A stretch of 63,997 bases of DNA, the filler included, from Malassezia furfur (Eukaryota), in the NCBI GenBank assembly GCA_052055015.1. It is 7 parts of 7 records of this genome, joined end to end, with 100 filler letters (N's around TTAATTAATTAA, not from the genome) between each part and the next. Parts side by side here need not be neighbours in the genome. Positions count along the whole stretch, not along the records: positions 1 to 9,564 come from JBQJIT010000418.1; positions 9,665 to 19,145 come from JBQJIT010000419.1; positions 19,246 to 28,702 come from JBQJIT010000420.1; positions 28,803 to 38,184 come from JBQJIT010000421.1; positions 38,285 to 47,655 come from JBQJIT010000422.1; positions 47,756 to 57,109 come from JBQJIT010000423.1; positions 57,210 to 63,997 come from JBQJIT010000525.1. One strand, given 5' to 3'. Numbering within the stretch: position 1 is the stretch's first letter; each line of letters starts with the position of its first letter. The position numbers and the translations under genes were made by a program. Positions 1,794-63,997 of this stretch are shown here, in pieces. The notes under the pieces are model-generated. The model was not told the origin of the DNA. It did not search any database and saw only the letters and a program-made list of their open reading frames with translations.

Positions 1794-3004
1794 CTACGAC
1801 GCAACACGCCATGCCGTGCGCGAGATCTGCTCGGCGCCGGATGCCCCGACGCTTGCCGCGAGGCTCGCGCCGGTCCATGCAAGCACATTGGGGGGGATCG
1901 GCGGCATGCGCACCGCACCTGGCGCCTGCGCGTTGAGTACTTGCATGGGCACGCGCGGCATGGCCGGCTGTTTGCCCGGCGACGCGCGCGAAGCTGCTAC
2001 AGCGTCGTGCAGCTGCGCTTCGAAGCGCGCTGCAAGGCCGGGCAGCATAGCCGTACCACCTGTGAGTAGGATGGCGTCTAGCACTTCGCGACGCACATCA
2101 ATGGGGAGGCGCGCAATGCACTCGCGCGCACACTCGACGATCCCTGCCTCGTCTTCGTCGCCGCGCTCCAGCAGCGCCTCGCATGCGGCAGTCCGGATCC
2201 AGCCGGGGACACGCACGCACCCTGCATTGGTGTGCAGCTCCCAGTCGGCCGCGTCGCTGTGGCTGTACGCGGCATGCATCGCTTCGGCATCAATGGGCCA
2301 TACGGCGTCACACGACGCTGTAGGTGCAGGGCCGACCAGCAGCGCCTCGGTCACGATCCGCTCGACGACCGGCGCGGGCACGTCGTCGAGTGGCGCGCCA
2401 TCGCATGCCGCATACGCACGCATGAGCGCCTCGACACACGCCGCAAGGCGCCGCCCTGCGCGCGGCGTCGAGACCAGGCAACTACGGAGCGGGCGGCCGG
2501 CGTATACCGGCATCACGACCGTTTCCCAGTACCCACAGTCCACCACAAGCCCCGTGTTGCGTCCGACTGCAAGGAGCGCAAGCGTATGGGTATCGATGAA
2601 CGAGACGCGCGGCACGCCCAGGTTGCCGAGCAGCACCCCACACAGCGCGTCCTGCACTGCTTCCACCCACAAGGGGCCGTGCACGAGGAGCACGTTGTGC
2701 GCGGTCGCATCGCACACGAGGTGCCTGCGTAAGCTTGTGCCACATACTCTTGGTAAATCGTGCGCACAATGTGCACGAGGCAGCGCACCAGGTCGCGGTG
2801 CCGCTCCTGCAGCTGCCGTGGATGTTCGGCGCGCATCTGGTCGGGGGCATACAGCGCGTCTATCGGGCGCCCGCAGACGCGTGCGCCCGCTGCGGCAACG
2901 TCCATCAGCACGCGCGGCGCACACTCGCCGGCGAGCCCCGCGCAGCACACGCGGCTCCCGACCTCGAGCACCACGCACGCTTCCGCCGGCGTCGCACTCG
3001 CCAT
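1794..3004 (-). CDS. ARP10: Actin-related protein, dynactin Arp10/Arp11 type; 1 intron (2725-2747, 23 nt)
   Basis: VVLEVGSR..AG, TGLVVDCGYWET, ILLTGGTAMLPG and AWTGASL actin-fold motifs; removing the GTATGT..CTTACGCAG intron joins two ORF frames (IYQE|HLVCD). Confidence 0.8.
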
Positions 3005-3070
3005 GAACCTCCACCTGATGCGACGTGGAGGCGGGGGAGAGGAATCGCTCGCGAGTACATACAATCACTA

Positions 3071-3879
3071 CTACAAGGCGGTGCCGCGCTCGACTGGGGG
3101 TCAGGGTGGGGGAACGTACGGTTCTCGCGGATCTCTTTGGTGTGCTCGTCGTAATACTGCGTGAGTAGGGCAACGTACGCGCTTGATCTTCTTGTTGAAG
3201 TGCTTGTTCTTTTCGTTGATGTAGGTAATCTCGGCATCTGGCCCATCGTCGCGCCGCCGGCTGCGCCGCCGGATCTGGTCTTGTCTGCGTGAGAGGTGCG
3301 ACGTACTCGTGATTCAGGTGCGACACCAGCCGGTCGACCGCGTCGTCGTCGGGGCGGTGTGCGCCGTACTCGGCAACGGCTTTGGGCACCTGCGCCTCGC
3401 TTGCGGGGATGAGTGCATGCTGCGCCGACGCCGACGGGCGCGGCTCTGTATCCGACTCCTTCTGCTTTTCGTATGCAGCCACGTCGGGCTTGAGGTGCGC
3501 AATCTGCCGACGGTAGGAGCGCTCGGCGAGGTCTTGGAAATCTGGGTGAGGCAAACGACGTACCGATCGCGCCCTTGTCGCGCGTACGTTCCTTGTCTTC
3601 GAGCTTCGCCTCCCATGCCTCGTTCTCCTCAATCGTATAGTGCATCGCACGGTGCCGCTCGACGTCCTTGCCCGCCTCGCGCAAGTCGCGCTCGTCGAGG
3701 ATGCGTTCGGCCTTGGCGAGCTTGCGCGCCTGTCCAACCGAGCGTTTCTGCGCATGCTCGCGACGTGATGCCTGCTCTTCGGCAACTTCCTGCCGGTTTG
3801 CCGACGCCGACTCGTTCATCTTAGCCTGCAGTCGCTGCAGCCGCGCACGGCGCTCCGCGAGGCGCGCGTCGTCGCCCAT
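3071..3879 (-). CDS. SYF2: Pre-mRNA splicing factor SYF2; 4 introns (3542-3563, 3285-3306, 3157-3178, 22 nt each; 3094-3119, 26 nt)
   Basis: Spliced product ends in the conserved [36 protein letters not shown]. Confidence 0.95.
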
Positions 3880-3915
3880 CGTGCGTGGAGGCAAGCCACG
3901 TGGCAATCGTGCACC

Positions 3916-61694: not shown

Positions 61695-61710
61695 CAAGTG
61701 GAGGTTCGCG

Positions 61711-62601
61711 ATGGACGGTGGCGAGGCGGCGGCCGAGCAGGTCGAGCGCAACCGTGCGCTGGGTACGTGACGTGCTGACGCAGCGCGGCAGAACTTGCGG
61801 CGGCTAGCGGCGCAGCGTGCGCCGACCGCGGGCCCGTCGACGGTGCGCGATGCGCGTGCGGCGCCGAGCGACGTGCCGCAGCCGCTGCCGCGGGACAAGG
61901 GGCTGGGCGACTACATCGAGTTTGACCTGACGCGGCTGCGCAACTCGAAGGGCGGTTTTTTGGTGGACGATGCGGACGAGGACCCTGCGGTGGCGCTCGA
62001 GAACCTGCGCAAGGAGCGCGAGCGCGAGAAGCAGCGGCTGCGCGACCAGATGGAGCCGGGCATTACGCTGGACCCCACGGCGCGCCCGCTGTGCGAGGTG
62101 TGTGGCTCGCCGGACGTGATGTACGAGCCGTTCCTGCGCGTGTTCAACGTGCGTGTGTGCCGCGCGTGCGAGCGCGCGCACCCCGAGGCGTACTCGCTGC
62201 TGACCAAGACGGAGGTGAAGGAGGACTACCTGCTTACGGACGCGGAGCTCGCGGACGGCGAGCTGCTCCCCCACCTGCTGAAGAAGAACCCGCACAAGTC
62301 GACGTACAGCAACATGATGCTGTTCCTGCGCAAGCAGGTCGAGGCGTACGCGTTCTCGGACGCGAAGTGGGGCTCCGCGGACGGCCTCGACGCGGAGTAT
62401 GCGCGGCGGCACACGGACAAGTCGCGCAAGCGCGTGCGCCGGTTCCAGCAGGGCCTCGAGCGCCTGCGCAAGCGCACGATCCGCGACAACGTGTGGCAGC
62501 AGCGGCGCGATGCACAGCACACGCACGCGTGGGAGCCCGCGGGCGCCGGCGTGCAGGTGTGCCGCGCGTGCGGCCAGCGGGTGGAGGTAGAAGAGTTGTG
62601 A
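61711..62601 (+). CDS. RAD14: NER damage-recognition protein XPA/Rad14; 21-nt intron 61763-61783
   Basis: YIEFDL..L.NSKGGF, C4 zinc finger, YSLLTKTE.KEDYLLTD.EL, NPH.STY..M.LFLR.QVE, KWGS. Confidence 0.95.
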
Positions 62602-62647
62602 GGCCGTTAGTCAGCGGCGCGCCGCGCGTGCTTCGCTGCGCGCCGCG

Positions 62648-63997
62648 ATGCCGCAGCTCGTGGACGACCTGCCGGTCGCGAATGCGGCGGCGCTGCGCAC
62701 GTTTGAGGAGATCGATGGCTGCGTGTACCAGACGAGCCGCATGGGGCGCACGCGCGGGCAGGACGACCCGTCGTGCGAGTGCTCGCCGCGGCACGGCGAG
62801 GCGCTCGCGTGCACCGACGAGAGCGGCTGCATCAACCGCCTGACGCAGGTCGAGTGCCTGCCCGGCGTGTGTGCGTGCGGGCGGCAGTGCCAGAACCAGC
62901 GCTTCCAGCAGCGCGCCTATGCCGCAGTAGACATTGTGCAGACGCCCAAGAAGGGGTTCGGCCTGCGCGCCGCCGCCGACCTCGCCGCGTACGTGTGGGG
63001 AGCTGAGCTGACGCAGCGACGCGTTTGTGTACGAGTACGTGGGCGAGGTGATCAACCACGCGACGTTTCTGCGGCGCATGCAGCAGTACAAGGACGAGCA
63101 CATCGCGCACTTCTACTTCATGATGCTGCAGCGCGACGAGTACATCGATGCGACGAAGCGCGGCGGCCGCTCGCGCTTCATCAACCACAGCTGCAACCCG
63201 AACTGCTACGTGAGCAAGTGGCACGTCGGCAAGCACGTGCGCATGGGCATCTTTGCGAAGCGCGACATCCAGGCGGGCGAGGAGCTCACGTTCAATTACA
63301 ACGTCGACCGCTACGGGTACGTATGTGTGTGCGCGCGCTGACCCCGCAGGAACGACCCGCAGGAGTGCTACTGCGGCGAGCCAAACTGCGTCGGCACGCT
63401 CGGCGGCCGCACGCAGACGGACATCGTGACGATGAGCGACCTGTACATCGACGCGCTCGGCATCGCCGACGAGGTCCGGCAGCTGCGCGCGACGCTGCCG
63501 CGCGGCAAGCGCAGCAAGGTGCTCGACGAGGACTTCCACCCCACGCTGCACCCCATGCACGAGGACGAGAGCGCACGCGTGATCACCGCCGTGCGCCAGG
63601 CGACGTCGTCGCGCCACATCCTCGAGAAGCTGCTCCAGCGCATCGCCATGACGGACGACGTCGGCGTGCACAAGGCGTGCGTCAAGCTGCACGGCTTTGT
63701 CATCCTCGCCGGCGTCCTCGACGAGTGGGCGGACGATGTGGAGGTCGTGACGCTGGCGCTGCGGTGCCTCGCCAAGTGGCCGCTGCTCGCGCGCGACAAG
63801 GTCGTGGACGCGGGCGTCGACGCGCAGGTGCGCCGCTTTGCGGACGGCGACGGCGAGACGCACGTGCTTGCGCAGTCGCTCCTCGACGCATGGGACAAGC
63901 TCGAGTCCACGTTTCGCATCGCCCGTAGAGCGCAGGCGGACGCCGCGGACGCCGACGCGGCCGCCACGCCGCCCGACGTGCACGCCGCGTCGTGGGC
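62648..63997 (+). CDS. SET2: Histone H3K36 methyltransferase Set2 (AWS-SET-postSET); introns 62989-63016, 63317-63349; runs off the window
   Basis: CINR..EC..CQNQRFQ, KKGFGL, spliced [42 protein letters not shown]. Confidence 0.95.

Follow-up and report, generated by a model that had tools for sequence, protein, structure and literature searches.

The stretch of Malassezia furfur DNA analyzed here (GenBank assembly GCA_052055015.1), referred to as the window, is 63,997 bases long, has a G+C content of ~65%, and carries about 40 genes, whose coding regions are interrupted by spliceosomal introns whose median length is only 24 nucleotides (nt). Among the genes are those for the splicing factors SYF2, PHF5A (a subunit of SF3b), and CWC15 and for the nonsense-mediated decay factor UPF3, all of which bear short introns themselves. 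UPF3 lies divergently upstream of SYF2 and an actin-related gene lies downstream of it, an order that is kept in metagenome contigs carrying the orthologues. Six pairs of 44-base N runs, with 12 bases within each pair and ~9.5 kb between pairs, cut some genes (for example, those for a myosin, PHF5A, and a desaturase), and some intron phases are therefore hidden. An earlier note on this DNA had described a regime of ultrashort introns in which the branch point is fused to the acceptor. Here, we recount these introns, weigh the support for each junction, and describe the geometry of their splice signals; introns were counted within the window only.

Number and length of the introns

We accepted 44 GT-AG introns between positions 2725 and 63349, or approximately one per gene. 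Their lengths range from 21 to 37 nt (mean, 25.6 nt) and form a single narrow peak with a median below 30 nt; 32 of the 44 measure 21 to 26 nt, 38 are no longer than 30 nt, and there are few or no long introns. The recount agrees with the earlier note, which had given 45 introns, 31 of them of 21 to 26 nt and with a median of 24 nt, over the same span (our first intron occupies 2725-2747 and the last 63317-63349). Its maximum of 52 nt was not recovered, however: the longest accepted intron has 37 nt, and the sole 52-nt candidate with the motif, at 42459-42510, aligns as protein with an M. psittaci homologue and is probably coding sequence rather than an intron.

Intron lengths leave a remainder of 0, 1, or 2 on division by three in 19, 13, and 12 cases, respectively. 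For the 41 introns of known phase, retention would shift the reading frame in 24, bring in a stop codon in 6, and add residues without a stop in 11. Multiples of three account for 17 of these 41, including the 11 stop-free ones, and no depletion of the class is visible in this small sample. All three UPF3 introns are likewise multiples of three (24, 21, and 27 nt). Introns also concentrate near gene starts: of the 39 in complete gene models, 13 fall within the initial 10% of the coding sequence and 21 within its first quarter.

Excess over chance and support for individual junctions

The splice signals that delimit these introns occur far more often than expected at the observed spacing. The strict motif GT[AG][CT]GT + CTNA[CT] + next AG has 40 matches of 20 to 30 nt on the two strands, compared with 4.0 ± 1.9 expected (maximum, 9) from 100 first-order Markov shuffles. 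A narrower pattern, GTACGTN{6,21}CTNAYN{0,3}CAG, has 26 matches versus 0.08 expected from 100 dinucleotide-preserving shuffles. With equal ends and a spacer of 22 to 52 nt there is a single match, which is the chance level, and with a spacer of 53 to 83 nt there are two, each made up of two adjacent short introns and neither a real intron of that length; spacers of 0 to 5 nt gave no match in the window. Between 18 and 40 nt, we count 44 distinct sites of the strict motif, of which 40 are in sense orientation within a gene model and compatible with its frame, the other four being antisense (one), sense but rejected (two), and intergenic (one).

A custom gene finder, in which the length prior was flat (12 to 150 or 12 to 300 nt) and the branch motif could be placed freely, returned high-signal introns that were almost always 21 to 37 nt long with the branch A 5 to 10 nt from the end. 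The long "introns" of low signal that it also returned were spurious joins of separate genes. Runs without splice-signal scoring were rejected, as they merged neighboring genes via false long introns.

Nineteen of the 44 junctions are exact to the codon, as judged from Pfam profiles, homologues, solved structures, and intronless orthologues, and a further 16 introns are required for an open reading frame. Continuous Pfam coordinates validate seven junctions: two each in SYF2 and UPF3 and one each in the genes for a DUF2015 protein, a GPN-loop GTPase, and eIF4E. At SYF2 intron 1, residue 102 of the 105 in exon 1 corresponds to profile position 35 and residue 2 of exon 2 to position 41, with one split codon; at intron 2, residue 76 of the 77 in exon 2 falls on position 103 and residue 3 of exon 3 on position 108, again with a split codon between. 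The profile continues in the same way across UPF3 intron 2 (exon 2 residue 36 at position 83, exon 3 residue 1 at position 85), GPN intron 2 (exon 2 residue 69 at ATP_bind_1 position 72, exon 3 residue 2 at position 75), and the eIF4E intron (exon 1 residue 153 of 154 at IF4E position 93, exon 2 residue 1 at position 95). Exon-level Pfam scans found no match for the genes at 28956-30321 and 42421-43631 or for EBP2 exon 1.

Homologues provide the remaining exact junctions. The four-intron model of SYF2 (238 residues) is letter-identical to the database entry "SYF2 splicing factor [Malassezia furfur]" (P0026), which supports introns 3 and 4 and fits M. furfur, or a near-identical strain, as the source. 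Exon 2 of PHF5A starts at residue 4 of human PHF5A (6qx9_BP, residues 4-100), with exon 1 supplying Met, Ser, and two bases of Lys. Orthologues of UPF3 without introns, in metagenome contigs L001 and L004, show no gap at any of the three junctions, and the junction of the actin-related gene is read straight across in contigs L001 and L003. The spliced N terminus of ATP19, MSYNIFGVK, fits the MSYxIxGxK pattern of fungal homologues. The SEC12-like WD40 protein is 82% identical to its M. brasiliensis counterpart and 66% identical to that of M. obtusa. Outside the codon-exact set, splicing at the last junction of the SET2-like gene joins a stretch ending in DRYG to a further 10 residues (not shown).

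We thus regard it as confirmed, as far as sequence comparison goes, that the introns are real and that their removal restores conserved protein frames. That such introns restore the frames of conserved proteins had been claimed in the earlier note, and it is borne out both by the 19 codon-exact junctions and by the frame or stop codons that force 30 of the 41 phased introns.

Orthologous introns in metagenome contigs

Several introns have counterparts of different length at the same place. In the actin-related gene, contig L004 carries an intron of 67 nt at the corresponding codon. At the position of SYF2 intron 1, there are introns of 23 nt in L003 and ~50 nt in L004; at that of intron 3, of 23 nt (L003), 25 nt (L001), and 82 nt (L004); and at that of intron 4, as read from the contig sequences, of 25 nt (L003), 29 nt (L001), and 45 nt (L004). 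Arranged by base composition, a contig with 71% G+C has SYF2 introns of 23, 23, 23, and 25 nt, two with 65% G+C have SYF2 introns of 25, 29, and 30 nt, and two with 51 to 52% G+C have SYF2 introns of ~50, 82, and 45 nt, in which the branch motif lies 10 to 11 nt from the end; two still more distant contigs have SYF2 gaps of ~100 nt. Across contigs, the splice signals alone are conserved, and the length differences are not multiples of three. It follows that the intron positions are old and that their shortness characterizes the lineage.

Splice signals and geometry

All 44 introns begin with GT and end with AG. The donor is GTACGT in 30, GTATGT in 6, GTGCGT in 5, GTAGGT in 2, and GTAAGT in 1, all fitting the GTRNGT consensus, such that position +5 is G and position +6 is T throughout and position +3 is A in 39. 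None of the 44 donors starts with GTATCC, as a U12-type donor (RTATCCTT kind) would. A branch-like CTNAY motif is present in 43 introns, the remaining one having CGCAC; the pentamers are CTCAC (17), CTGAC (14), CTAAC (6), CTGAT (3), CTTAC (2), CTAAT (1), and CGCAC (1). After the presumed branch A, 31 introns have 5 more nt, 5 have 6, 5 have 7, 2 have 8, and 1 has 10, which leaves only 2 to 3 bases between the motif and the AG in most of them. The acceptor is CAG in 43 introns and TAG in one; in all 44, the 19 with validated junctions among them, it coincides with the first AG past the branch motif.

As the earlier note had stated, there is no polypyrimidine tract: the longest pyrimidine run has a median of 3 nt. 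Its description of a branch point fused to the acceptor holds for the branch-like motif, which does abut the acceptor; the branching nucleotide itself we infer to be the A of CTNAY, given the likeness of the motif to yUnAy and its fixed place. Between donor hexamer and branch pentamer, the spacer is 70% G+C and has at least 6 nt throughout, and the presumed branch A lies at intron position 16 or later.

Two introns contain a nested donor that goes unused. At 42526-42549 and 30157-30180, a better-looking donor (GTATGT and GTGTGT, respectively) lies just 2 to 3 nt before the branch motif, and the reading frame demands the weaker donor (GTAAGT and GTAGGT, respectively) 7 to 8 nt further upstream; for 42526-42549, the homologue agrees. 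Use of the nested GTGTGT, 8 nt downstream in 30157-30180, would give a 16-nt intron and a broken frame. Together with the empty class of 0- to 5-nt spacers, these nested unused donors suggest a minimum donor-branch distance, i.e., a steric floor.

Table 1. Accepted introns, gene spans, and masked runs, with positions along the window. The support column gives the consequence of retention, the evidence for the junction, or both; "signals" means splice signals.
Gene or feature	Position	Strand	Length (nt)	Support and remarks
Actin-related gene (1794-3004)	2725..2747	-	23	Frameshift if retained; orthologues
SYF2 intron 4	3094..3119	-	26	Identity to public M. furfur SYF2 (P0026)
SYF2 intron 3	3157..3178	-	22	Model equals P0026
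SYF2 intron 2	3285..3306	-	22	Pfam SYF2 profile, codon-exact
SYF2 intron 1	3542..3563	-	22	Pfam SYF2 profile, codon-exact
UPF3 intron 1	4137..4160	+	24	In-frame stop if retained; Pfam Smg4_UPF3 continuous; orthologues
UPF3 intron 2	4271..4291	+	21	In frame without stop; Pfam profile; orthologues
UPF3 intron 3	4388..4414	+	27	In-frame stop if retained; orthologues
Shugoshin-like gene (6573-8339)	8228..8248	-	21	Signals and strand only; in frame without stop
Rap1-Myb-like gene (cut by masked run), near start	8437..8466	+	30	Signals only
TPR-like gene (12747-13918)	12834..12856	+	23	Frameshift if retained; complete ATG-to-stop model
DUF2015 gene intron 1	14033..14054	+	22	GTAGGT donor; frameshift if retained
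DUF2015 gene intron 2	14300..14329	+	30	Pfam: upstream exon ends at 46, next begins at 47
FUN14 gene	14989..15009	-	21	Nonconsensus CGCAC branch motif; signals only; in frame without stop
Fungal transcription-factor gene (16108-18613)	18385..18409	-	25	Frameshift if retained
PHF5A (SF3b subunit)	18823..18846	+	24	Splits codon 3; human PHF5A alignment
Hexapeptide-repeat gene (19380-19947)	19808..19842	-	35	Frameshift if retained
Hexapeptide-repeat gene (19380-19947)	19914..19939	-	26	Frameshift if retained
Gene 28956-30321	29058..29091	-	34	Frameshift if retained
Gene 28956-30321	30157..30180	-	24	GTAGGT donor; signals only; in frame without stop
CWC15 intron 1	31060..31084	+	25	Frameshift if retained; Pfam Cwf_Cwc_15 reaches 232/244 just before
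CWC15 intron 2	31114..31148	+	35	Frameshift if retained
GPN-loop GTPase gene intron 1	31265..31287	+	23	Frameshift if retained; start codon joined to P-loop GPAGAGKST
GPN-loop GTPase gene intron 2	31499..31522	+	24	In frame without stop; Pfam ATP_bind_1
eIF4E	35852..35888	-	37	Longest accepted; Pfam IF4E
Gene 36697-37661	36764..36786	+	23	Frameshift if retained
Minus-strand gene cut by masked run 38185-38284	37923..37946	-	24	Signals only
Gene cut at 38185-38284, probably near start	39390..39414	-	25	Signals only
EBP2	41479..41512	-	34	Frameshift if retained; exon 2 begins at Pfam Ebp2 position 50
Gene 42421-43631	42526..42549	+	24	GTAAGT donor; gapless to M. psittaci P0022; Malassezia homologues only
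Gene 42421-43631	42698..42726	+	29	Frameshift if retained; collinear with P0021, P0022
Carnosine N-methyltransferase-like gene	45989..46012	+	24	Signals only; in frame without stop
Cdc27/Pol32-like gene	48558..48581	-	24	Signals only; in frame without stop
Cdc27/Pol32-like gene	48638..48660	-	23	Frameshift if retained
DEAD-box (DBP5-like) gene, after codon 7	48772..48794	+	23	Frameshift if retained
CRAL-TRIO gene	53731..53757	+	27	Signals only; in frame without stop; unselected in one gene-finder run
ATP19 intron 2	54758..54781	-	24	In frame without stop; read-through adds 8 residues absent from 7 fungal homologues
ATP19 intron 1	54936..54957	-	22	Frameshift if retained; N-terminus match
SEC12-like WD40 gene intron 1	58637..58661	+	25	Gapless to M. 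brasiliensis, Tilletia, and Tilletiaria homologues
SEC12-like gene intron 2	59453..59476	+	24	In-frame stop if retained; homologues gapless except P0002
SEC12-like gene intron 3	59692..59714	+	23	Frameshift if retained; collinear with Malassezia homologues only
XPA-like gene	61763..61783	+	21	In-frame stop if retained
SET2-like gene, between AWS and SET	62989..63016	+	28	Frameshift if retained; flanking exons match Pfam AWS, SET
SET2-like gene, after SET domain	63317..63349	+	33	In-frame stop if retained
SYF2 and UPF3, gene span	3071-5046			
PHF5A, gene span	18823-19144			
CWC15, gene span	30357-31163			
Masked runs	9565-9664, 19146-19245, 28703-28802, 38185-38284, 47656-47755, 57110-57209			

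Interpretation and alternatives

These introns are very probably ordinary U2-type GT-AG spliceosomal introns that have shrunk to near their physical minimum. In each intron, three near-invariant signals are packed together: a donor hexamer (usually GTACGT), a branch motif of the yUnAy type (CTSAC) beyond a GC-rich spacer of at least 6 nt, and the intron end at CAG, in most cases reached 5 nt later. The intron would be recognized as one unit, with the branch motif pairing with U2 and the first AG past the branch serving as acceptor, and the strong consensus signals would compensate for the missing pyrimidine tract. In yeast, according to the available part of one study, Slu7 and Prp18 are needed only where the branch and the 3' splice site are at least 12 nt apart, and Prp22 and Fyv6 only where they are at least 21 nt apart (PMC11651659). 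The spacing of 5 to 10 nt seen here falls in the range where all four factors are dispensable in yeast.

A more radical view, which takes up a suggestion of the earlier note, is that U1 and U2 have too little room to occupy these introns jointly and that assembly is therefore modified, or that U2AF, SF1, Slu7, or Prp18 has been lost or altered. The sharp floor fits this view, as the spacer is never shorter than 6 nt and the branch A never comes before position 16, and so do the absent pyrimidine tract and a branch-acceptor spacing at which yeast second-step factors can be dispensed with, again on the portion of that study available (PMC11651659). We nevertheless consider it rather unlikely. 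The splicing proteins encoded in the window look ordinary, with PHF5A matching human PHF5A end to end (E = 5e-49) and SYF2 and CWC15 having full Pfam domains; Rfam and tRNA scans of the window returned no match and no snRNA, and no early splicing factor (U2AF, SF1, or U1 proteins) was identified there. Moreover, other lineages with introns of 15 to 27 nt are reported, in the text available of a recent survey, to have canonical spliceosome parts (PMC13644364). An extended form of the same idea holds that Malassezia, with approximately one intron in each gene, works at a possible lower physical limit of the spliceosome, with no less than 15 nt separating the presumed branch A from the donor G and, as a rule, 5 nt separating it from the end of the intron; early assembly would then differ if U1 and U2 cannot sit together, and the need for U2AF, Slu7, Prp18, and Fyv6 would be relaxed. 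We hold this form to be improbable, and if it were true, a yeast that can be cultured and transformed would be a tractable model for minimal-intron splicing.

Partial retention in mRNA of some in-frame, stop-free elements, adding 7 to 9 residues, would account for the fact that 11 of the 41 phased introns are stop-free multiples of three and that this class is not visibly depleted. Homology checks cover five of the 11; among the other six, the one at 53731-53757 went unselected in one gene-finder run. Yet the five that were checked, which are among the validated junctions (4271-4291, 18823-18846, 31499-31522, 42526-42549, and 54758-54781), are all absent from homologues or profiles, and stop-free introns bear the same strong signals as frame-shifting ones; such retention seems quite improbable. 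That the motifs arise by chance or in coding sequence, or that the true introns use more distant splice sites, is extremely improbable and is refuted for the 19 codon-exact junctions. With its branch distance left free, the gene finder did sometimes take a later AG (3261-3306, 31265-31357, 58637-58673, and 63317-63416), and two motif sites in sense orientation were discarded for being coding or doubtful. However, profiles and homologues contradict the later-AG choices where these can be checked, including the 37-nt alternative for SEC12-like intron 1 (58637-58673), which is excluded by the homologue alignment, and 26 motif matches stand against 0.08 in shuffles.

Several points weigh against the reading of all 44 elements as shrunken U2-type introns. 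For nine, signals and strand are the sole basis, six of them being stop-free and in frame and the other three belonging to genes that masked runs cut. Of the 19 validated junctions, three are backed by other Malassezia predictions only, which possibly share annotation habits. The signal matrices and codon table of the gene finder were trained on this window, which makes it circular for the motif, though not for length. Finally, a 100%-identical database protein (P0034) lacks the GVK of our ATP19 N terminus and has another model of intron 1; more distant homologues keep GVK.

Rejected candidates and other features of the window

Apart from 42459-42510, a handful of motif sites were set aside. 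The one at 2060-2096 lies inside an actin-domain exon, where its removal would break the frame, and that at 8846-8881 is antisense to a gene. Those at 22445-22473 (minus strand, 29 nt) and 28110-28135, which lie beyond the coding models, show atypical 3' ends and may be introns of untranslated regions (UTRs). The former lies upstream of the NMT1/THI5-like coding region. Two longer candidates also lie upstream of coding regions: that of the catalase gene in the case of 25294-25359 (plus strand, 66 nt) and that of a LEO1-like gene in the case of 39508-39571 (plus strand, 64 nt). All three of these upstream sites (22445-22473, 25294-25359, and 39508-39571) are possibly 5' UTR introns or chance matches. 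As 5' UTR introns, the 66- and 64-nt candidates would exceed every coding-region intron found here.

The segment 20000-28700 has a lower G+C content (0.57 to 0.60 versus ~0.65) and contains none of the 44 introns. It carries genes for an NMT1/THI5-like protein, an alpha/beta-hydrolase, an RNase T2, and a catalase, the last of which has been discussed as horizontally acquired in Malassezia. The RNase T2 frame (23752-24738, minus strand) places 213 residues over 175 Pfam profile positions and may hold in-frame insertions or introns without the usual motif.

Public annotation and significance

The short-intron regime is a property of the genus that is already known and present in public annotation. 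The curated M. sympodialis annotation, as tabulated in the part of its report available to us, comprises 4493 genes with 5350 introns, which average 30 bp and of which 99% are backed by RNA-seq (PMC5389616, Zhu et al. 2017, Table 2), and the legend of Figure S8 in the same report describes an intron-length axis of 0 to 100 bp. A 2020 review mentions Malassezia genes with "very short introns" (PMC7426719). M. furfur introns have been annotated with RNA-seq (10.1101/638429), and the title of that preprint describes transformation and CRISPR. The earlier note had set these introns apart from the known shortness of Malassezia introns, which overstated the case given the mean of 30 bp already on record for M. 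sympodialis (PMC5389616, available part). Novelty is therefore low, since the regime is a known genus property and is present in public gene models. Among open-licence papers and preprints, we found none on Malassezia branch sites and none calling these introns ultrashort, although this is weak evidence of absence. The exceptions that a 2026 paper names to the idea of there being no introns below 30 bp are ciliates, microsporidia, and dicyemids, to which it adds myxozoans (PMC13644364), and a 2025 paper places a 23-nt Trichomonas intron among the shortest known (PMC12316389); the passages of the two that were available do not mention Malassezia.

It had also been predicted that standard gene finders would miss most of these introns. 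This is true only in part: the public M. furfur SYF2 protein equals the four-intron model, whereas several other Malassezia predictions read through or misjoin. In M. brasiliensis, M. vespertilionis, and M. caprae, the public SYF2 proteins (P0028, P0030, P0032, and P0033) have 564 to 616 residues and combine SYF2 and Actin Pfam domains. Because the two genes are separate neighbors in the window (1794-3879), these fused models look like annotation errors at short terminal introns. At junction 1 of the SEC12-like gene (58637-58661), the M. obtusa protein P0004 has a 7-residue insert, VRAPLTQ, exactly at the junction; judged from the protein only, its possible codons fit GTN CGN ... CTN ACN CAG, as a read-through 21-nt in-frame intron would. 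P0002 has extra residues at junction 2 and then diverges downstream, as if the intron had been read through, and P0002, P0038, and P0039 show extra residues or divergence of this kind at intron sites.

In practical terms, several public Malassezia proteins are visibly wrong at short introns, through read-through or through fusion of SYF2 with the actin-related gene. As a discovery, the regime carries little weight; its value lies in a precise geometry, with a 6-nt floor and a motif 5 nt from the end, in a tractable yeast. Both the sharp spacer floor and the distance of 5 nt from branch motif to acceptor amount to concrete predictions on the size limits of the spliceosome. In this yeast, which lends itself to culture and editing, introns of 21 to 24 nt are the norm, and they have been overlooked in the splicing literature.

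Comparison with known systems

Saccharomyces cerevisiae, too, has strong donor and branch consensus sequences, needs no pyrimidine tract, and uses an AG near the branch. The tiny introns of ciliates are AT-rich and have other consensus signals, and in Paramecium there is a depletion of introns that are free of stops and a multiple of three in length; no such depletion is visible among the M. furfur introns, 11 of 41 being stop-free multiples in what is a small sample. The introns of S. cerevisiae, in contrast, are few and long, with a mean of 397 bp (PMC8476143). Closer to home, introns are also short in M. sympodialis, with a mean of 30 bp there and of 25.6 nt here; the available part of that report gives length statistics only, without an analysis of branch position or of a spacer limit (PMC5389616).

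The type B introns of Trichomonas vaginalis are likewise ~23 to 25 nt long and have an extended, conserved 3' motif in which the branch site and the AG are combined, according to the passages available (PMC12316389). In those introns, ACTAA lies at -12 to -8 and the rest is poly-T, whereas here the presumed A is at -6 and the spacer is GC-rich, which makes the branch-acceptor distance shorter than the -8 of Trichomonas. The type B class also numbers just 24 introns genome-wide, compared with about one per gene in the M. furfur window (PMC12316389, same passages). A fixed branch distance of the Trichomonas and Giardia kind is nonetheless evident, with 5 nt after the presumed A in 31 of 44 introns and 5 to 8 nt in 43 of 44.

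On the available text of the 2026 survey, ciliates such as Paramecium (~25 nt) and Stentor (15 to 16 nt) have a narrow peak at or below ~25 nt genome-wide together with a canonical spliceosome (PMC13644364). Microsporidia, dicyemids, and myxozoans have similar medians, of 22 to 27 bp, and in these parasites the splice signals are described as reduced or degenerate (PMC13644364, available text), whereas Malassezia has unusually strong signals and is a yeast amenable to culture and transformation.

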